The notes beneath the pieces are model-generated. The model was given only the letters and a program-made list of their open reading frames with translations. It had not been told where the DNA came from and did no database searches. The position numbers and the translations under genes were made by a program. Shown piece by piece: positions 3,204 through 17,542 of a DNA stretch of 49,774 nucleotides. Source of the DNA: a virus (lineage: Duplodnaviria > Caudoviricetes); the IMG/VR virus record IMGVR_UViG_3300022741_000072, positions 1-49,774 of that record; one strand, written 5' to 3'. Each line of letters opens with the position of its first letter. Positions within the stretch are counted from its first letter, which is position 1.

Positions 3204-3437
3204 ATGCAGTGCTACGTGTGCAGGGGTGAGGCAGAGCGGCTCTCCAGTGGTTTCGATGGAGAGCGGATCAACTGCCCTGATTGCGGGCCTTATGCGATCA
3301 GTGGATCGGCGTTGGCCGAGATGACTGCTGGTGGCCACACGATCAACACCGAAGCGACCCGCGCCTGGCTGGCGGATCAGCGTGAGCGCGTGGAGCCGGT
3401 GCCGATGATCAATACCCAGACGCGGATCTTGGGTTGA
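3204..3437 (+). CDS. Small zinc-ribbon protein, opposite orientation to the operon
   Basis: CYVC...CPDC motifs, GAGG RBS. Confidence 0.65.
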   Translation: MQCYVCRGEAERLSSGFDGERINCPDCGPYAISGSALAEMTAGGHTINTEATRAWLADQRERVEPVPMINTQTRILG

Positions 3438-3441
3438 TCAA

Positions 3442-4218
3442 TCATTGATCGAGGTAGGCGGCTATGAACTGCGTTGCCGCTTCAGCATTGATGGCGTTTC
3501 CGTAGGCGCGCAGGCGTCCACTTCGTTCGGTATCGCCATCAGCCAGCGGCTTAATGCCGGGTTCAAGTAAACGCCAGGAACCGTCGGCGCCCTCCATAGG
3601 GATCGCTCTAGCCCATGGAGACAGGCTGCATCGGTCAGCGTCACCCCGCCATGATGCCGACTTCCTTCCTTTCGACTGCTTGTCGAGTTTCGGCTTCCTA
3701 TGGCGTCCTGTGCGGTTGGAGTTGGCCACGATCCACAGCCGCTGTCGCAGGTGCGGAGCGCCGACCCCCGCAGAGCAAATATCGAACGCTGCGCAGGCGT
3801 AACCCGCACCCTCCATGTCAGCTTGAACAAGGTCGAGCCACGCGAGGCCAGCCTTGCTCGCAACCTGTTCGCCAAAGATGACGTCAGGCTTTCGCTCGCT
3901 AATGAGGTGGTGCCACGCCGGCCAAAGGTGCCGCTCATCAGCAAACCCAAGTTGTGAGCCTCCCTCGCTGAAAGGTTGGCACGGACAGGAACCCGTCCAA
4001 ACAGGTCGATCATCGGGCCAGCCGGCGCGGCGAAGTGCAAGCGACCAGACGCCGATGCCGGCGAAGAAGTGGCACTGGGTATAGGGCTTGAGGTCATCGG
4101 GATGAACATCCTGTATTGAGCGTTCGTCGACATCGCCTGGAGCGATGTGACCCCCGGCGATCAGGTTGCGCAGCCACTGGGCGGCGAATGGATCAATCTC
4201 GTTGTAGTAGGCGGCCAC
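3442..4218 (-). CDS. C5 DNA cytosine methyltransferase (alpha polypeptide)
   Basis: Motif I FFAGIG, catalytic SCPCQPFS, EQV (VI), HLRQR (VIII), YGNAI (X); GTG start after GAGGAG. Confidence 0.92.
   Translation of the reverse strand: MAAYYNEIDPFAAQWLRNLIAGGHIAPGDVDERSIQDVHPDDLKPYTQCHFFAGIGVWSLALRRAGWPDDRPVWTGSCPCQPFSEGGSQLGFADERHLWPAWHHLISERKPDVIFGEQVASKAGLAWLDLVQADMEGAGYACAAFDICSAGVGAPHLRQRLWIVANSNRTGRHRKPKLDKQSKGRKSASWRGDADRCSLSPWARAIPMEGADGSWRLLEPGIKPLADGDTERSGRLRAYGNAINAEAATQFIAAYLDQ
3462..4133 (-). CDS. Putative beta polypeptide of a two-frame C5 methyltransferase (EcoHK31I-like), nested in an alternative frame; start uncertain
   Basis: 223-codon open alternative frame with WPTPTAQD and motif IX-like LNPALSRWLMAIP, which the main frame lacks. 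Confidence 0.7.
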   Translation of the reverse strand: MSTNAQYRMFIPMTSSPIPSATSSPASASGRLHFAAPAGPMIDLFGRVPVRANLSAREAHNLGLLMSGTFGRRGTTSLASESLTSSLANRLRARLASRGSTLFKLTWRVRVTPAQRSIFALRGSALRTCDSGCGSWPTPTAQDAIGSRNSTSSRKEGSRHHGGVTLTDAACLHGLERSLWRAPTVPGVYLNPALSRWLMAIPNEVDACAPTETPSMLKRQRSS

Positions 4219-5838: not shown

Positions 5839-6093
5839 TCAGTGATGCAGTTGCAGGCCGAGCTCAAGGCGTGTGGCCAGTTCGGCTGCCTCGTGCTGGC
5901 TTGGACGCCAGGCCAGCAGGCGCCCGCTATCGGCGTCGAGCACCTGCCAGTCGCTACCGCAGGCGTACAGCTGGGTGGCGCGCGGTGCTGGCTGGCGTGT
6001 ACGGGCTTCAGCAGCCATGCGGGCATGGCCGGTCTGGCGCAGCGCGTCGAGCAGTTCGGCGATTAATTCGCGGGCTTTGGTGAAGGCGTTCAT
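5839..6093 (-). CDS. Hypothetical protein coupled to the RT stop codon
   Basis: ATGA overlap with RT stop; GAGG RBS. Confidence 0.6.
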   Translation of the reverse strand: MNAFTKARELIAELLDALRQTGHARMAAEARTRQPAPRATQLYACGSDWQVLDADSGRLLAWRPSQHEAAELATRLELGLQLHH

Positions 6094-7337
6094 GTGTCAC
6101 CTCGCTTGCGGTAGGTCTGGGTAAGGGCTGCGTTTACGGTGTGGCCGCGGCGCAGCAGCAGGCGCGCGAGCTGCGCGCGGTCGTGGCGGCTGGAGGTGGC
6201 CTGCCCGAGCAGGCCGAAGTAGCTGTTGGCAGTTGCCAGCAGCTCGTCGTCAGGTGCGGCGGCGATGCGCCGCTGCGCTTCGGCAACGGTCTTGCGGCGC
6301 GTGGTGCGGCGCCAGGGCTTGATCACCTGGCCTACGAAGTCGACGCCGCGCGCGACGGGCTGCAGGATGGTTTTCGTTGGGTTGAGACGCGCGCCTAGCG
6401 TCGGCAGGAAGGCCTCTATCTCTGCGAGCCAAGCGTTGAGCTGTTGCGGTGATTCGTGCAGCAGTACGAAGTCGTCCACGTACCTGATGTAGTGCCGCGC
6501 CTTGAGCTCGTGCTTTGCGAACTGATCCAGGGCGTTCAAGTAGACGTTGGCGAAGAACTGGCTAGACAGGTTGCCGATGGGTAGCCCGAGGTGTGCTGGC
6601 TGAGCAGTCAGGCGCTTGTGCTGTGGAACCCGGTTCAGCAGGTGAATCGGGCAGCGCATGCTGACGTTCTCGCGCGGGTCGTGCCACAGGATTTGCAGCG
6701 CCAGGCGTCGCCACCAGGGCTCGTCGATCAGTCGCCGTAGCTGGCGATCCAGCACGCGCTTGTCGATGGCGACGAAGAAGTTGGCCAGGTCTGCCTTCAG
6801 GTAGTGGCAGGGGCGCGCCCAGTTCTGCGTCGCACTGCGCACCTTGGCCTCCAGCCGCTTGGCAGCGTAGAGGGTGCCGCGCCCTGGGATGCAGGCGCAG
6901 CTGTCGGCGATGAATGTCGACTCGATGCCGGCGCCGATCTGGTTGTACAGCAGGTGGTGCACGATGCGGTCACGGAAGTCAGCGGCCCACACTTCGCGCG
7001 CCTTTGGCCGGGTGACCACAAAGCATATCGAGCGGCCTGGCTGGTAGGTGCCGGCCAGCAGCTCGTCGTGCAGGTCGAGCAGGTTGGTTTCCATGGCCTG
7101 TTCGAACTGCCGCGCGCTGTTGGTGTTGCGCTTGTTGCGGCGGCAGTCGTAGTAGGCCTGCACCAACTGCTCGAAGGTGAAGGGTGCAACCGTTGGATCT
7201 GCGGACGAGCGGGGCGAAGCGCTCGAAGTTCTTGTCGTTGTATGTCTGCCAGCCAACCTCGAAGACCATGATGTAGGCGCTGTAGGCGGAACACTGCGAC
7301 CTGCCGTGCTATCTACGTCGCCAGGGCGATTGCTCAC
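6090..7337 (-). CDS. DGR reverse transcriptase (start codon uncertain)
   Basis: KAREVWAADFRDRIVHH, KADLANFF, GLPIGNLSSQFFAN (DGR IGxxxSQ motif), RYVDDF, GVDFVG. Confidence 0.95.
   Translation of the reverse strand: MSNRPGDVDSTAGRSVPPTAPTSWSSRLAGRHTTTRTSSASPRSSADPTVAPFTFEQLVQAYYDCRRNKRNTNSARQFEQAMETNLLDLHDELLAGTYQPGRSICFVVTRPKAREVWAADFRDRIVHHLLYNQIGAGIESTFIADSCACIPGRGTLYAAKRLEAKVRSATQNWARPCHYLKADLANFFVAIDKRVLDRQLRRLIDEPWWRRLALQILWHDPRENVSMRCPIHLLNRVPQHKRLTAQPAHLGLPIGNLSSQFFANVYLNALDQFAKHELKARHYIRYVDDFVLLHESPQQLNAWLAEIEAFLPTLGARLNPTKTILQPVARGVDFVGQVIKPWRRTTRRKTVAEAQRRIAAAPDDELLATANSYFGLLGQATSSRHDRAQLARLLLRRGHTVNAALTQTYRKRGDT
7198..7298 (-). repeat. DGR template repeat (TR) by position; atypically adenine-poor
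   Basis: CAG TGT TCC GCC TAC AGC GCC TAC ATC ATG GTC TTC GAG GTT GGC TGG CAG ACA TAC AAC GAC AAG AAC TTC GAG CGC TTC GCC CCG CTC GTC CGC AGA; colinear and ungapped with both VRs, 18 mismatches to each over 99 nt. Confidence 0.9.
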
Positions 7338-7442
7338 CCAGGAAACTGCGCGAGACCAGCCCGAACGCTTTAGATCGGCGGTATCTCTGCTGCGCTTGGC
7401 GGTGGCCGGATGGCCAGCGGCACGACCAGATTCAGCGCGCAG

Positions 7443-7466
7443 GCATGAGGGCCGTAACCCTCATGC
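7443..7466. other. Perfect 9-bp hairpin over the avd stop codon (possible 5' boundary of the DGR RNA)
   Basis: GCATGAGGG-CCGTAA-CCCTCATGC. Confidence 0.55.
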
Positions 7467-7820
7467 AACGGGCGCGGTTGCGGTGATGCTCTTTTTCCAG
7501 GCGTTGGCCTGGCGGCCGATGCTGGCGGTTGCCTGCATGGTCTTGGCGTGCTGCCCCTTGGCGATCACGCCCTGGTTGGTGAGGGCGCGCAGCAGGTAGT
7601 TGATCATCCAGATGCTTTCGAGCAACTGGTTGAGGTGGGGCAGCTTGTCGCGCGCCATGTTGGCGCGGCCGATAAGCACCATGACCTGCAGGCACTCATC
7701 GCGAAGTTTGGCGCCGACCACTTGCTTGAGGTCGCGCGGGATGTTGCGCACGAGATTCAGGATGATGCCGAGCAGTTCTTCGGCGACCTTGTGAATCTGC
7801 AGCTCCGTGTGCATGGCCAT
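7461..7820 (-). CDS. avd: DGR accessory variability determinant (four-helix bundle)
   Basis: 119-aa basic helical protein with C-terminal SIGRQANAWKK (cf. Avd EIGRxxGGW); between target gene and TR; AAGGAGG RBS. Confidence 0.88.
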   Translation of the reverse strand: MAMHTELQIHKVAEELLGIILNLVRNIPRDLKQVVGAKLRDECLQVMVLIGRANMARDKLPHLNQLLESIWMINYLLRALTNQGVIAKGQHAKTMQATASIGRQANAWKKSITATAPVA

Positions 7821-7935
7821 CCTGGCCTCCTTGTGGTGGTGTGCAGGCGGCCGGCGCTGCCCGGCATGCTTCTGGTCTGGCTGGCTGCTCCAGCCCCGGA
7901 ATCACCTGCGGTGAAAGAATCAATGAATCAGTGGA

Positions 7936-8409
7936 TTACTGAATTAGAACGCCGCGGACGAGCGGGGCGACGCGCTCGCCGTCCTTGTCGTAGTAGTACT
8001 GCCAGCCACCCTCGAAGTCCAAGCCGTAGGCGACGTTGGCGGAACACTGCGTGCTCAACCAGCAATAGCGATCCTCGCGCAGTGTGACCAGACCCTCGGT
8101 CTTTGCTGCCATCAGCAGGTGCGCTTCCAGGCACGCCGGGATGTGGCCACCCAGCTCCAGCGCCTGCTTGGCGATTTCGCTGCCGGCTTCGGCCATGGCG
8201 CGGGTGTTCTTCTCGCCGTCGGTGTAGCTGGTGGCGCCTTCGATGTCCTGGCCGTACTCGCCGTAGGTGCCCTGCACCTCGCCTGGCAGCAGGATCAGCG
8301 CGCGCTGTTCGTTGCCGATGAAGTAGCGGGCGACGAAGATGCCGTCGTCCAGCGGCTTGCCGCGCTCGGGAAGATCCGTCACGAGGATAGTGCGTTGTGC
8401 TTGGTTCAT
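7936..8409 (-). CDS. DGR target protein 1 (CLec-fold / DUF1566-like, 157 aa)
   Basis: DGEKNTRAMAEAGS...IPACLE...WLSTQCSA...ERVAPLVR C-terminus contains VR1; ATG with GGAG RBS. Confidence 0.88.
   Translation of the reverse strand: MNQAQRTILVTDLPERGKPLDDGIFVARYFIGNEQRALILLPGEVQGTYGEYGQDIEGATSYTDGEKNTRAMAEAGSEIAKQALELGGHIPACLEAHLLMAAKTEGLVTLREDRYCWLSTQCSANVAYGLDFEGGWQYYYDKDGERVAPLVRGVLIQ
7951..8051 (-). repeat. Variable repeat VR1
   Basis: Encodes QCSANVAYGLDFEGGWQYYYDKDGERVAPLVRG; ungapped match to TR. Confidence 0.92.
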
Positions 8410-8439
8410 TGGGTTGCTCCGGGGTCGATTTGAAGGCGT

Positions 8440-8464
8440 AAAAAAGCCCCGGTGTGAGCGGGGC
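8440..8464 (-). terminator. Rho-independent terminator between target 2 and target 1
   Basis: Minus strand GCCCCG-CTCACAC-CGGGGC-TTTTTT. Confidence 0.7.
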
Positions 8465-8544
8465 AATACCGTGATGACAAGCGATGCAGAGCATCCCAAT
8501 GCCGCCTCTGCGAAGCGGCATCAGCGATGCAATGAAGGAGTGGA

Positions 8545-9141
8545 TTAGCGAATGATGGGAATCCTGCGGACGAGTGGGGCGAAGCGCTCGTTGAGCTTGC
8601 CGTCGCCGCTCTGCCAGCCATCCTCGAAGCCCATGCTGTAGGCGTTGTGGGCGGAATACTGCGTGCTCGTCCAATAGCGGACGTCCTCGCGCACCGTCAC
8701 CAGGCCGGCATCCTTGGCGCACTTGAGCAGGTGACACTCAGCCACCGATGGGATGTAGGCGCCGGCCTCGATGGCCTTTTTCGCCAGCTTGCTGCCGGCT
8801 TCAGCCATGGCCTGGGTGTTCGCCAGGCCATCACCGTGAGTCGTTGTCACGTCCTGCTCACGCTTACCCCAGGCGCCCTCGATGTCCGCCTCGGCGCCAA
8901 GGTAGGTCAGGGCGAACTCTTTGCCGCCGATCCAATGGCGGGCGAAGACCACATGCCCGTCGACGCGGTCGCCGATTTCGAGCGTGGTTTCGGCTGCGAT
9001 GGTTTCGACTACTCCGGCGAACTGGATCGGCTGTGCCTTCGCGATTTCAGGGCACAGCGACTGCAGCACTTGCAGGGCAAGCGAGGGGCTGGTGGTATGA
9101 AGCGACGATTCGCCGACGCTGAGCGAGATTTCCTGGGTCAT
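8545..9141 (-). CDS. DGR target protein 2 (CLec-fold / DUF1566-like paralog, 198 aa)
   Basis: DGLANTQAMAEAGS...IPSVAE...YWTSTQYSA...ERFAPLVRR; clear paralog of target 1. Confidence 0.88.
   Translation of the reverse strand: MTQEISLSVGESSLHTTSPSLALQVLQSLCPEIAKAQPIQFAGVVETIAAETTLEIGDRVDGHVVFARHWIGGKEFALTYLGAEADIEGAWGKREQDVTTTHGDGLANTQAMAEAGSKLAKKAIEAGAYIPSVAECHLLKCAKDAGLVTVREDVRYWTSTQYSAHNAYSMGFEDGWQSGDGKLNERFAPLVRRIPIIR
8563..8663 (-). repeat. Variable repeat VR2
   Basis: Encodes QYSAHNAYSMGFEDGWQSGDGKLNERFAPLVRR; ungapped match to TR. Confidence 0.92.
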
Positions 9142-9563: not shown

Positions 9564-10442
9564 TTAAAACGCTTCGCACGACTCAGAGCACCCATCATGC
9601 TCGGCAAAGCGTGGCGCCCGCCTCTCGTCAGGGAGCGCCACTTGCGCTAGAGCAATCAGGTCTTTGGTGCTTCTGTTCTCGCGAAAGAACACCCTGGCCT
9701 CTCCTGTCTGTCCGGCTCCGTGATGGCCGTAAAGACGCTCCATCTCTGCGGGGAATTCGTACCATTCAGGGTGATCGCTGAGATTCAACAGGTGCTTGTT
9801 CAGAGACTTCTTCCAACACCAGACGCAGTTCCCGTATCTCTCTGGAAACTCAATCTGGCCGGATCCGTCCAGGGGCCTGTCGAGGTCGAAAGGCTGGTCT
9901 TCCCACCAGGCAATAACGTCCTGTTTATCGCTTTCCCAGGTGGAGGCAAGTGGATAGATCCGGCCAGGTGTGCGCCGCAAGCGCTTCGGCTCGTCTGCAC
10001 GGATGCCGAGCGCTAGGGAATAGTTGACTCCCAGCTTGCTCTCTCCACCCCAGCCCAAAATGTCTCGGATATAGGCAAATGACGGGCGAGTCTTCAGGTC
10101 ACGCGTACAGAACGGGAAGGCCTTGTTTGGCAGGCCAAGCTTTTCGATGATCTGGCGGAACGGGGTTCCGTCCCTGCTTGCCGTTTCGAAGGAAACGATC
10201 TTCGCTTTCACTCCTTGACCGTGCCTGGCATTGACTTGCGCCTCAATCCATACAATCTCGATTCCCCAGGCCTCCTCGCAGTCGCGGACGAAGGCCAGAG
10301 TCCGAGGGTGCTCCCAGCCCGTATTGCAGAAAATAAAAACAATCTCGTACTGATCGCTCCAGTACAGCTGAATCATGCGAGCCATATACATTGATGATCG
10401 GCCACCGCTGACGCTGACGATAAGTTTCGGCTTCGTTTTCAT
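9564..10442 (-). CDS. PAPS-reductase-like adenine-nucleotide alpha-hydrolase family protein (start 10442 or 10460)
   Basis: PP-loop SVSGGRSS, FCNTGWEH, CTRDLK, GIRADE, GNCVWCWKK, C-terminal CSESCE. Confidence 0.8.
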   Translation of the reverse strand: MKTKPKLIVSVSGGRSSMYMARMIQLYWSDQYEIVFIFCNTGWEHPRTLAFVRDCEEAWGIEIVWIEAQVNARHGQGVKAKIVSFETASRDGTPFRQIIEKLGLPNKAFPFCTRDLKTRPSFAYIRDILGWGGESKLGVNYSLALGIRADEPKRLRRTPGRIYPLASTWESDKQDVIAWWEDQPFDLDRPLDGSGQIEFPERYGNCVWCWKKSLNKHLLNLSDHPEWYEFPAEMERLYGHHGAGQTGEARVFFRENRSTKDLIALAQVALPDERRAPRFAEHDGCSESCEAF

Positions 10443-10697
10443 GCGTTCCTCCGGATTCATCCCGCTGCACCCGGTAGCCCAGGTGCAGCAGTGATTCGTC
10501 GGTCTTGCTCGCTACACCTCTCGGGTCATTCGCGCGGTTCGGTCAGCACCTCGTCAGGCTCGGCCCCTCTGCGGCCTACCCCTGAACGCCGGTCGCCGTT
10601 CGGCGTAGCGGTTGTTACTCACATGACTTTCTGTCGCCCCACATGTGATGGCCGGGGCTGCCTCGCCGGTTGCCCGGCTAGCTGTTCATGGCGCTGG

Positions 10698-10891: not shown

Positions 10892-11191
10892 ATGACGAAA
10901 ACCGCAAAGCAGCCCGAGCCACTGAACGCCATTGACCGCCTGGGGCTGCGCGTTACCACGATGATTCAGCACCCCATCGCACAGCTAAATGGCGGCGTGG
11001 TGGTGCATCGGCTCGATACCGACCCGGACTACGCCTGGCAGGCGATCCTTGAATTGATCAAGGAAACGGACGGCATCGAGATGGAGGAAGGGGAGGGATT
11101 GATCACATTGAAATGGGATCTGCCGAGCGATGACGACACGCGCCTCGAGGCCGGCGAGATCGAGGCTTTGGAAGATGCTGCACCGTTCTGA
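10892..11191 (+). CDS. DUF1654-family protein
   Basis: DRLGLRV..MI.HP.AQ...HRLDTD...W pattern; first gene behind the SOS box. Confidence 0.7.
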   Translation: MTKTAKQPEPLNAIDRLGLRVTTMIQHPIAQLNGGVVVHRLDTDPDYAWQAILELIKETDGIEMEEGEGLITLKWDLPSDDDTRLEAGEIEALEDAAPF

Positions 11192-11636
11192 ACTGCCGCA
11201 CGGCGAAACCGTTGTCGTGCTCGGCGCCTTGCGCGCCGATGGCCAGGCTATACCGCTTTGCTCCAGCCTGGTGCCGGCCGGCTTTCCGTCGCCAGCACAG
11301 GATCACCTAGAACAACAGATATCCCTGGACGAGCTACTGAACATCCGCGCACCACAGACGTACCTGGCCCAGGCCTGCGGCGACAGCATGACGGGGATTG
11401 GCCTGTACGACCGCGACCTGATGGTGGTGGACAGGTCGTTGGATGCAGTGAGCCGAGACATCGTCATCGCCCTGGTCAACGGTGACGTATGCGTGAAGCG
11501 CTACTGCCGGGAAAACGGGAGCGTGATTCTGCGCCCGGAAAACGCCGCATTCCCGCCGCGCTACATCATGGAGGGTGACGAGCTGCAGGTATGGGGCGTG
11601 GTTACCGGCTGGATCCGGCGGACGCGCCATGCATGA
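11175..11636 (+). CDS. umuD: Pol V accessory subunit UmuD/RulA (S24 peptidase)
   Basis: [12 protein letters not shown] cleavage site, GDSM (Ser), VKR (Lys), WGVVT. Confidence 0.92.
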
Positions 11637-12903
11637 GCGCGCCTTCGCACTGATCGACTGCAATTCGTTCTATGCCAGTTGCGAGCGGGTATTCCGGCCT
11701 GACCTCGCGCGCACACCGATAGTGGTACTGAGCAATAACGATGGGTGCGTTATCGCCCGGAGCCGTGACGCCAAGCCGTTCGTGAAGATGGGCGAGCCTT
11801 ACTTCCAGATCAAGGCCACGCTGAAGCGCCACGGCATCCTCGCTTTCAGTTCGAACTATGCCCTGTATGGCGACATGAGCGAGCGCGTGATGGCGGTTAT
11901 CGAGGGGCTGGTGCCAGCAGTCGAGGTTTACTCAATCGACGAAGCGTTTGCCGACCTGACCGGCGTACCTGGCTCACTCGAACAGATTGGCCGGCACATC
12001 CGCGCGCAGGTGCTGAAGGTAACAGGCATCCCGACCGGGGTTGGCATTGCCACTACCAAGACCCTGGCCAAGCTGGCCAACCATTCCGCAAAAAGGTGGC
12101 AGCAGCAGACCGGCGGTGTCGTTGACCTCTGCGACCCAGACCGGCGCGACAAGGTGCTGCGGGTAACCCCGGTCGAGGATGTGTGGGGCATCGGCCGCCG
12201 GCTGACGGCGCACCTGCATGACATGCACATCAAGACCGCCCTCGACCTGGCCCAGGCGGATGCCTGGATGCTGCGTAAGCGCTTCAGTGTGGTGGTTGAA
12301 AAGACGGCCAGGGAGCTGCGCGGCGTCAGCTGTCTGGAGATGGAGGAGGCCGCACCACCGAAGCAGGAGATTTGTTGTTCACGCATGTTCGGCCACCGCC
12401 TGAAGGAGCTGCCGCCTATCCGCGAGGCGGTGGCAACGTATGCCGCCAGAGCCTGCGAGAAGCTGCGTGCACAGCAGTCGGTGTGCCGACGAGTGCGGGT
12501 GAGCATTCGCACCGGCATGCACAACCCTGACGAGCCTCGCTTTGCCCGCGGCGCCTTAGTTGAGCTGCCATTCCCCACTGACGACACGCGCGCGATTACC
12601 CAGGCCGCCGTCAGCGCCCTTGAGCAGGTGTATCGGGATGGCTACGCCTTCGCCAAGGCGGAAGTGTTGCTGATGGAGTTGTGCCAGCGCCAGGACGTGA
12701 CGGGTGACCTGTTCGCCCCGGCGCAGGCGGCAGCCTCACAAGCGGTGATGGCGGTACTGGATTCGGTTAACGCCAGGTGGGGCAGGGGGACGATACGGCC
12801 CGGCGGCGTGCCGGCCGAGCCCGAATGGGGAATGCGCAGGGAGCTGAAGAGCCCGAGTTACACGACGGATTTGGATCAGATTTGGCAGGTGCCGTGCCGG
12901 TAG
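11629..12903 (+). CDS. umuC: Y-family DNA polymerase V subunit UmuC/RulB
   Basis: [36 protein letters not shown]-terminal SPSYTT. Confidence 0.95.
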
Positions 12904-14487: not shown

Positions 14488-15270
14488 ATGAGCGTTCAGG
14501 CCATGACCTGGGCGCTGGCTCAGCGCCTGGTCACCGACCCATCAGCACGGCATGTGCTGCTGTGCCTCGCCAACTATGCGGACAAAGACGGCAAGGGCGC
14601 CTTCCCGTCCGCCAACAGCCTTTCCGATGACACCGGCCTGGCGGTGCGCACCGTTCGATACAAGCTGGAGCAGCTGCAGGAGACCGGCGTTATCCGCCTC
14701 GGCAATCAGGCGATTGCTGCTGCCTACATTGATCGCGGCGACCGTCGTCCGGTGGTTTACGACCTGGCGATGGAGCGGGGTGCAGCTGATGCACCCCGCC
14801 CTCCACGACGTGCAACACATGCACCCCGTAACGCTGAACGGGGTGCAAATGAAGACAGCACGGGGTGCAACTCACGACCGAACGGGGTGCAAATGACGAC
14901 CGAACGGGGTGCACCAGTTGCACCCAATCCGTCATTAAACCATCAAGGATCCGTCAATGATCCGAGAGAGGAGCGCGCACCCTTCGCGCTGGATCTCGAA
15001 TGGCAGCCAGATCCGAAGCGGCTCAAGGCGGTGGCGTTTGCTGCTGGGGTGAGTGTCGATGCATGCCATGAGGCGCTGGGGTTGTTCGTGACCCACCGTG
15101 AGGCCGAGGGGCTGGCAAAGACTTCTGCCGAGTGGCATGCCGACTTGGTGAAGTGGGCCAAGCGTGATCAGGCTCATGGCGCCGGCAAGGTGTCCCAGCT
15201 TCGGCCGTCCTCGACCGCGCCGACTGATGACGACTTCGCCGGCACTGGCTGGCTTGGGGGGCGGCAATGA
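14488..15270 (+). CDS. Phage replication initiator (O-like; N-terminal HTH)
   Basis: ARHVLLCLANYAD..G.AFPS...L..DTG..RTV; internal iterons. Confidence 0.85.
   Translation: MSVQAMTWALAQRLVTDPSARHVLLCLANYADKDGKGAFPSANSLSDDTGLAVRTVRYKLEQLQETGVIRLGNQAIAAAYIDRGDRRPVVYDLAMERGAADAPRPPRRATHAPRNAERGANEDSTGCNSRPNGVQMTTERGAPVAPNPSLNHQGSVNDPREERAPFALDLEWQPDPKRLKAVAFAAGVSVDACHEALGLFVTHREAEGLAKTSAEWHADLVKWAKRDQAHGAGKVSQLRPSSTAPTDDDFAGTGWLGGRQ
14776..14925 (+). repeat. Replication origin iterons
   Basis: CGGGGTGCA at 14776, 14839, 14861, 14883 and 14905 (22-bp period), plus inverted TGCACCC copies. Confidence 0.85.
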
Positions 15271-16266: not shown

Positions 16267-16505
16267 CAGCCATCGCCTGGGCGCCGAAGAAAAACCGAGA
16301 CGGCGCCATCGTGCCGAGCTGCTGGATCACCGATGCCGGTTACACGGTCGCGGAATACAACGTCGATGGCGCCAAGAGTTACACCGTGACCGCTCCAGGG
16401 CAGCAGGTGGCCACGGCCTACCGCCGCAGCCGTGAGGGTGTCATCACGGCGATCAATCAGCACATGGCCGGGGAGGCTGTGAGCAAGTTCGAGGAGGTGT
16501 CCTGA
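16263..16505 (+). CDS. Hypothetical phage protein
   Basis: Coupled ORF (ATGA overlap). Confidence 0.6.
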   Translation: MTAIAWAPKKNRDGAIVPSCWITDAGYTVAEYNVDGAKSYTVTAPGQQVATAYRRSREGVITAINQHMAGEAVSKFEEVS

Positions 16506-17542
16506 TGGCGAAGCGTAAAACCAATCTGCGCACGGTGGCCGATGTGGTGCTCTGGTGGCTTGAGCGGCTGCTGGTCGATGTGCAGCGCTCTGGCAAGTAC
16601 AAAGACAGCATGCGCTCGATGGTGCAGCGGCACGTTATTCCAAGGGTTGGCAAAGTGTCTGTGCGCAAGCTGGATCGGGTGACGCTCGACGATAAGCTGA
16701 TCTGGCCGATGCACAACGAGGGGCTGAAGCCACGCACGGTGCAGAAGGCGGTGCAGGCGCTGCGGCAGGCCTTCGCGATGGCTGACGAGGCCGAGCACAT
16801 CGACGCCAACCCGATGGTGGGCATCACCTTCCGAAACTTCTACAAGGGCAAGCTACGGCCGAAGCCGGCTGCGTTGTCGCGGATTGATCTGCCTGCTCTG
16901 GTGCGTCGACTGGTTGAGGTGTTCAACGCCGACCCGGTGCGCGGGATGTTGCCGCTGCTGATGCTGGCTTACGGTACTCGCATCACTGAGACGCTGCTAA
17001 CGCGGTGGTCTCGGTTCTCGCTTGACGAGCGGGTGTGGTTCATCAGCGCCGCTGACCAGAAGTCGCGCCGAGAGCACCTGTTGCCGATCACGCCGCAAAT
17101 CATCGGCCTGGTAACTCGCTACCGCGCAGCACTGCCTGATGCTCGTCTGCGCGCCATGTGGATGTTCGCGGTGCGTGGCGGCGGTCGAATGGCGGACACC
17201 AGTGCCCATGCCTTGATCCGTGAGGTCAGCGAGCGTCAGTGGACGAGTCATGACCTGCGCAAGCTGATGCGCTCCAGCCTGGCGGACATTGGTATCGATT
17301 ACATGGTCGCCGAACACCTGATCAACCACAGCCTTGGCACGACCGCCGAGACGTACCTGAGCAAAGACGAGATGGATCGCCGCCGCGATGCCGTCGAGCG
17401 CTGGCATGCGCGTCTGGATGAGTGCGGTTTTACCGATGCTCACGGCGTGAATGTGGCTGCTCCTGCATTTCTACAAAACAACGCAATGCCGCTGGTGGCG
17501 GGCACTCCCGCCGATTCCTGCGTTTCTATGGGGAGAGGATGA
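16505..17542 (+). CDS. Second tyrosine recombinase (no Arm domain)
   Basis: YGTRITE, QKSRREH, SHDLRK, INHSL, TY catalytic pattern. Confidence 0.85.
   Translation: MAKRKTNLRTVADVVLWWLERLLVDVQRSGKYKDSMRSMVQRHVIPRVGKVSVRKLDRVTLDDKLIWPMHNEGLKPRTVQKAVQALRQAFAMADEAEHIDANPMVGITFRNFYKGKLRPKPAALSRIDLPALVRRLVEVFNADPVRGMLPLLMLAYGTRITETLLTRWSRFSLDERVWFISAADQKSRREHLLPITPQIIGLVTRYRAALPDARLRAMWMFAVRGGGRMADTSAHALIREVSERQWTSHDLRKLMRSSLADIGIDYMVAEHLINHSLGTTAETYLSKDEMDRRRDAVERWHARLDECGFTDAHGVNVAAPAFLQNNAMPLVAGTPADSCVSMGRG

Follow-up and report, generated by a model that had tools for sequence, protein, structure and literature searches.

Template Repeats in Known DGRs

In the DGR of Bordetella phage BPP-1 (mtd-VR/IMH/hairpin, avd, TR, spacer, brt), a reverse transcriptase (RT), Avd and a template repeat (TR) act together with VRs at the 3' end of CLec-fold targets; mutagenesis is of the A-to-N type, and hairpins are located downstream of the VRs. 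The available parts of PMC6182149 and PMC10907252 describe the TR as invariant. DGRs can diversify without end because information passes by rule in one direction, from TR to VR. In 'atypical' or 'sloppy' DGRs (Roux 2021, PMC8144416; Wu 2018, PMC5758913; Schillinger 2012, PMC3521204), TR/VR pairs deviate from the A-to-N rule; the accessible portions of these papers explain the non-A pairs by drift, by inactivity or by an RT of relaxed specificity. Overlap of TR and RT ORF is already known as well and corresponds to the layout of Schillinger group 3, as far as described in PMC3521204. According to excerpts of two bioRxiv preprints, DGRec (10.1101/2025.03.24.644984) and HGT-DGR (10.64898/2026.07.21.739853), engineered DGRs overwrite their TR with their own cDNA at VR-like rates, and adenines are progressively lost. 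In the literature searched, TR self-mutagenesis was found for engineered recombineering systems alone, and no report on a natural TR was found.

The DGR Cassette of the Prophage

The window, i.e., the whole stretch of 49,774 nt analysed here, represents a lambdoid prophage with integrase, repressor, replication, terminase, portal, and tail genes. Judging from its closest annotated relatives, which infect Pseudomonas, its host may be Pseudomonas-like. The early region encodes a complete DGR on its minus strand in the order target 2, target 1, avd, RT-15 RNA, TR, and RT (Table 1). The two-target DGRs of Pseudomonas and Burkholderia prophages (Cruim01 PP179333, Haboob, Magia, and the loci L001-L284 of our survey) share this cassette order, the RT-15 RNA and Lcl_C-type targets. 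The similarities to BPP-1 comprise RT, Avd, TR, VRs at the 3' ends of targets with a CLec-type fold, A-to-N mutagenesis, and hairpins downstream of the VRs. Unlike in BPP-1, the TR is mutagenised and overlaps the RT frame, as in group 3, the RT-15 RNA lies 5' of the TR, and the targets are two small early-region proteins instead of a tail fibre.

Table 1. Features of the DGR cassette in the window.
Feature	Position	Strand	Remarks
Template repeat (TR), eroded	7198..7298	-	12 differences from intact TR of L001/L002
TTG codon at TR+42, likely RT start codon	7254..7256	-	
DGR reverse transcriptase (RT)	6090..7256	-	open frame, 388 aa counted from TR+42
RT-15 structured RNA	7297..7477	-	Rfam RF03018, 165.8 bits; between avd and TR
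avd (bAvd PF22296)	7461..7820	-	119 aa, intact; E=1.8e-13
VR1	7951..8051	-	17 differences vs intact master, 16 at A
Target gene 1	7936..8409	-	157 aa; predicted CLec-like Lcl C-terminal fold
GCA-loop hairpin downstream of VR1, target-site hairpin candidate	7902..7914	-	
VR2	8563..8663	-	13 differences vs intact master, 12 at A
Target gene 2	8545..9141	-	198 aa; paralogue of target 1; phrog_4245
GCA-loop hairpin downstream of VR2, target-site hairpin candidate	8499..8521	-	

By sequence, RT, Avd, and RT-15 RNA look intact. The RT matches RVT_1 with intact YVDD and SQ motifs and is 96% and 95% identical to the RTs of the closest loci, L001 and L002, respectively, the catalytic region being unchanged relative to L002. 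Both VRs are predicted to sit at the 3' ends of CLec-fold target genes. An Lcl_C domain was identified in 88 of 110 aligned homologues of the target, while target 1 itself is without an Lcl_C match; a target profile search matched 8q4e (E=1.6e-9), and the target model (pLDDT 96.5) has the Lcl C-terminal domain as its best Foldseek match (E=1.1e-3).

The Template Repeat and Its Intact Master

A sequence-only reading of this locus had proposed that the TR itself carries DGR-type A-to-N changes and that an A-rich master gave rise to all three copies. Its counts were reproduced when TR, VR1, and VR2 were compared over 101 nt, all on the minus strand. The TR differs from each VR at 18 sites, of which 9 (VR1) and 7 (VR2) are located at TR adenines, and thus breaks the DGR rule that VR differences occur only at TR adenines. 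Nine sites show an A in a VR opposite T, G or C of the TR, the TR contains 21 A compared to 20 A in VR2, and 21 of the 24 columns that vary among the three copies contain an A. The number of three A-less columns was also correct; two of them are A in the intact master described below, and the third, a T>G in VR1, is a true non-A change. One G>A in VR2 likewise does not go back to a lost adenine.

L001 and L002 provide this master. Their TRs are identical to each other and AAC-rich with 31 A and 9 AAY, and the five VRs of both loci deviate from them at A alone. In contrast, the window TR is not the invariant AAC-rich template expected of a DGR: the two AAC codons counted previously are its only 2 AAY. 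The master peptide predicted from the window agrees with the real TR of the relatives (QYSANNAYNMDFENGWQNNNDKNNER). Aligned to the latter, the window TR differs at 12 of 101 sites, and these are not random bases, as 11 of them are adenines in the relatives (hypergeometric p=5e-6). Outside the TR, about a fifth of the differences in the RT gene fall on the relative's A (16/78 for L001, 15/68 for L002). The A-specific changes of the TR are therefore not attributable to chance, and they speak against neutral drift. Against the same master the A-to-N rule holds for the VRs, with 16 of 17 differences at A in VR1 and 12 of 13 in VR2. The three copies are thus independent A-to-N derivatives of one master, which bears out the core of the sequence-only reading.

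The difference at 7257 also occurs in VR1 and VR2 and probably arose earlier in the lineage. Without it, 10 A-to-N changes plus one C>A remain private to the TR, and its mutable adenines are reduced by about a third relative to the master. The C>A at 7243, the sole non-A change, is wedged between two mutated adenines; in this respect it resembles the 'snowball' effect measured for bRT, as described in the available text of 10.1101/2025.03.24.644984. Among the sites lost in the TR, VR1 retains A at 3 and VR2 at 5 (8 together). The TR flanks are nearly identical to those of L001 and L002. Judged from these alignments, the window TR is a real, natural DGR template that was mutagenised A-specifically, and the VRs still derive, by their alleles, from the intact master and not from the eroded TR.

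Among viral contigs, a skeleton pattern matched the records of L001 and L002 alone. Two loci, L283 and L284, were matched among metagenome contigs; L283 has the coordinates and record length of the L002 record, while L284 equals the window throughout 4716 nt and was counted once together with it. In contrast to previous accounts of 'atypical' DGRs, the deviation from the A-to-N rule is traced here to A-specific change in the TR itself. Some catalogued 'non-A' DGRs might accordingly be explained without new RT chemistry.

Origin of the Eroded Template Repeat

For the window, we consider it rather probable that one mutagenic cDNA of the element itself homed onto the TR, which is also the route that fits best among the three put forward in the sequence-only reading. 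An error-prone cDNA would have integrated back onto the TR rather than onto a VR and would have caused about ten adenine-specific changes, most of them in one event, in an otherwise intact two-target DGR. Being homologous to the TR locus, this cDNA could have annealed there via a weak hairpin-independent homing route, and neither VR would have been rewritten from the eroded TR since then. TR self-mutagenesis, known for engineered DGRs, would probably have its natural instance here, and the rule of one-way transfer would be shown to leak.

Self-homing is favoured because it requires no unseen donor, because the second TR patch of a further element, L255, is carried whole by neither of its VRs, and because homing without a hairpin is reduced but not abolished, according to the accessible parts of PMC3240598 and PMC12875486. 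As expected of a DGR, the candidate GCA-loop hairpins are located downstream of VR1 and VR2, and none is located downstream of the TR. No GNA hairpin was detected at the window TR, which counts against self-homing; in a strict 59-nt test a hairpin was present in none of the 212 TRs compared to 77 of 337 VRs of the elements listed. An acquired hairpin or an altered flank at the TR was considered and rejected; neither was found, and the first 25 nt downstream of the TR are the same as in L001-L004. In 2004, Doulatov reportedly made the BPP-1 TR variable by adding an IMH. A-to-N changes 5' of the VR-homologous stretch, in the TR-only leader, would have been diagnostic of cDNA; none is present in the window, which likewise counts against self-homing.

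Further observations speak against self-homing. The published self-mutagenesis required an added recombineering protein: in E. coli, the engineered systems work only with a single-strand annealing protein and with mismatch repair suppressed. The window, in contrast, is a natural prophage, and among its 55 ORFs scanned against PHROGs no phage recombinase or single-strand annealing protein was detected. The TR is changed at 9 of 26 scored sites, compared to a mean of 11.7 in family VRs, and its likelihood score lies above that of 35 of 95 subfamily VRs. In number and kind, its changes thus fit the VR distribution of the family, which speaks for self-homing; but as the TR scores as an ordinary VR allele, the sequence cannot tell a fresh cDNA from an absent VR as donor.

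This leads to DNA-level gene conversion, a route beyond the three proposed previously, in which the TR received, by homologous recombination, the allele of a VR from a sibling genome copy, a co-infecting relative or a third target since lost. We regard conversion as a possible but less probable origin. Besides the VR-like character of the TR, it is consistent with RT-independent TR-VR recombination reported in an engineered system, with changing numbers of targets (L001 has three), and with five eroded elements in which only one VR has the patch (L018, L122, L156, L276, L065). The TR of L065 is identical to its neighbouring VR over 101 nt, while that of the near-identical L052 is intact, and so it appears to stem from conversion or misassembly; one of these occurs in the family, which counts against self-homing. 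For the window, however, conversion requires an unseen donor. The resident VRs were rejected as donors, since one has 2 and the other 0 of the 10 private TR alleles, with 2.25 expected by chance, and both retain A at the sites given above. A third VR, or any other repeat copy, was not found within the 49.8-kb record, the best other match to the non-A skeleton reaching 40/70; the exact core allele string of the TR occurs in no viral contig scanned, and the closest relative, L002, likewise has two targets. An intact TR elsewhere in the host, such as in a second prophage, would instead give cDNA in trans and rewrite the TR, while the VRs stay master-like. This second proposal of the sequence-only reading we consider unlikely. 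In the available part of PMC10907252, an identical TR is reported to act on targets in trans, and some hosts harbour two such cassettes (L202/L220, L208/L277, L204/L211); but neither the 49.8-kb record nor the contigs listed for the sequencing runs X1, X2, and X3 lend it support. The X1 depth over the TR equals that of the single main contig, no other contig of at least 80% identity occurs among the matches listed for these runs (contigs may drop variants), and the VRs, identical where X2 and X3 cover them, give no sign of ongoing rewriting.

If, as the third of the earlier proposals holds, the RT also misincorporated opposite U, the TR could be the true unchanged template; we give this practically no credence. 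The underlying count was accurate, 14 of the 20 non-A mismatches being located at TR T, and the family-wide mismatch rate at T (0.68%) is slightly over those at C (0.26%) and G (0.31%). But the mismatched T sites are A in the relatives, and 336 near-canonical family TR/VR pairs, a set from which pairs exceeding 3 non-A mismatches were excluded, as were the loci L284 and L065, show mismatch rates of 45% at A, 0.7% at T, 0.3% at G, and 0.3% at C. In addition, non-A mismatches amount to 0 in 8 of the 9 VRs of relatives with 91-96% identical RTs (the remaining one, from L003, is out of register), and the window RT has the same catalytic region as its L002 counterpart. An assembly chimera or neutral drift is very improbable, too. 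The source is metagenomic, and three repeats with 83% identity lie inside 1.5 kb, which would be compatible with a chimera; yet the TR is no mosaic of the two VRs, and its changes are A-specific. The chimera that the sequence-only reading had cautioned about was not seen in other runs: an X2 contig (7105-7553) and a contig of X3 (7168-7350), an RNA-library run from another study and year, both have 0 differences from the window TR. There are likewise no differences between the window and X2 over 7966-9141, or X3 over 7626-8057 and 8386-8600, and the VRs are identical wherever these contigs, available as consensus only at depth 3-5, cover them. Run X1 may be the source of the record and is not independent.

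The Likely RT Start Codon inside the Template Repeat

The RT frame runs through the TR, and the 5' end of the RT ORF contains the TR, an overlap that the sequence-only reading had missed. An ATG is present at TR+42 in 180 of the 212 family TRs listed, and a TTG in the window. An RT frame was detectable in 205 of the elements listed; in 97 of these, the only possible in-frame start is located in TR codons 12-14, and in 46 of those an in-frame stop just precedes these codons. The RT of Cruim01 is annotated from TR+39, i.e., also with a start inside the TR. In the window, no start codon was found between the TR and the conserved N-terminal RT motif; the frame is also open up to a GTG at 7337, which is located in a stem of the RT-15 RNA and is GCG in L002. 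Every candidate start has a weak predicted ribosome-binding site (-3.0 kcal/mol in the intact case, -2.2 in the window). That none of the 212 TRs has a stop in the RT frame was rejected as evidence for translation, as the VRs are open too (280/281). The RT likely starts at TR+42.

TTG is still a start codon. If most TR changes go back to one self-homing event, the change from ATG to TTG would have occurred in the same event; a TTG start would lower RT output and might thereby help to hold the VRs frozen. Low homing rates alone could account for the unchanged window VRs as well. The adenine of the TR+42 ATG is changed in 105 of the 281 VRs listed. If the RT start is a mutable template adenine, self-homing might act as a built-in brake that narrows diversity by a ratchet of clustered patches and that, in more than one third of full events, downgrades the start and freezes the targets, as in the window; we put this forward as a speculative and rather doubtful idea. 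Template erosion, if this is true, would also regulate the mutator. L255 looks frozen, and its RT start lies outside its TR. Over the variable codons, the theoretical amino-acid space decreases from about 10^15-10^16 to 10^10, so the reachable diversity would shrink through TR erosion.

Template Erosion across the Family

Among the matches listed, 273 TR matches at the loci L001-L284 were condensed to 212 elements with 116 TR haplotypes. The survey patterns were built on flanks and not on adenines; they covered 119 of about 230 viral matches, and some loci are without flanks. With TRs ranging from intact to lightly and heavily eroded, these cassettes constitute a testable system. Directed evolution by DGRs is stated to be hampered by TR erosion, so the way in which natural elements mostly escape it is of practical value. 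Nearly all of the prophage DGRs have an intact AAC-rich TR, whereas the window element (21 A) and L065 (16 A) alone are heavily eroded among the 212 elements listed. In L225, 7 A are missing from the 3' half of the TR, and about ten of the 212 show small clustered A-to-N patches, which are usually passed to both VRs. Of the 176 listed elements with a usable VR, 7 have a VR carrying A at a site that is not A in the TR.

For 146 of the elements listed, private TR changes were scored against three flank-defined neighbours, which yielded 59 changes at A and 87 elsewhere (p=0.02). Without the window element and L065, 31 changes at A and 85 elsewhere remain (p=0.32). The lack of an overall excess at A counts against a pervasive ratchet and is a further point against self-homing. 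The A changes are clustered: a pair within 5 nt occurs in 8 elements compared to 0.44 expected (0/20,000 shuffles), where the shuffle ignores the kinship of the elements and thus gives no clean p-value. In 15 eroded elements judged by eye, all eroded alleles are present in both VRs in 8 cases, in one VR in 5, and in neither in 2. With 8 of 15 carrying the alleles in both VRs, eroded TRs usually keep templating their VRs. The window element is unlike most of the eroded ones in that its VRs were not rewritten from the eroded TR.

Eroded and rearranged templates in related cassettes

Erosion is seen at locus L225 (Metapseudomonas resinovorans DSM 21078, 2301-2416), where 7 adenines are gone from the 3' half of the TR. 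All seven eroded alleles are present in both VRs, so this template continued to function after its erosion. At L065, the TR and the adjacent VR (4040-4140 and 3375-3475) show no difference across 101 nt, while the TR of the near-identical L052 is intact; this comparison points to either a VR-to-TR conversion or a short-read misassembly.

The TR of L255 (Comamonas odontotermitis, 2301-2416) carries a three-base A-to-N patch, which neither VR has as a whole. Small clustered A-to-N patches also occur in the TRs of L010, L014, L018, L031, L053, L122, L145, L156, L243, and L250. Most of them lie at one or the other end of the variable stretch, at TR positions 14-18 or 68-72. The TR of L034 (4040-4160) has a 15-nt duplication in its AAC run compared with its own VRs. 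In L063, six non-A sites differ between the 3' part of the TR and both VRs, which suggests that its TR was recently exchanged for that of a related element.

RT start relative to the template

The codon at TR+42, the likely RT start, is ACG in 29 of the 212 family TRs among the matches listed. Since about half of these have no start codon downstream of the TR, translation of their RT may begin either upstream, so that the entire TR is read, or at the ACG itself. In L255, a separate ATG for the RT lies downstream of the TR.

Other features of the window prophage

The umuD-like/umuC-like pair constitutes a second mutagenic module within the same prophage as the DGR.

Additional features and their window coordinates
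Feature	Position	Remark
umuD-like and umuC-like genes (Pol V type)	11130-12903	adjoin repressor gene
Second integrase-family gene and PAPS-reductase-domain gene	16505-17542 and 9564-10460	
Three direct repeats, 22 nt each	14836-14913	within replication initiator gene; likely origin iterons
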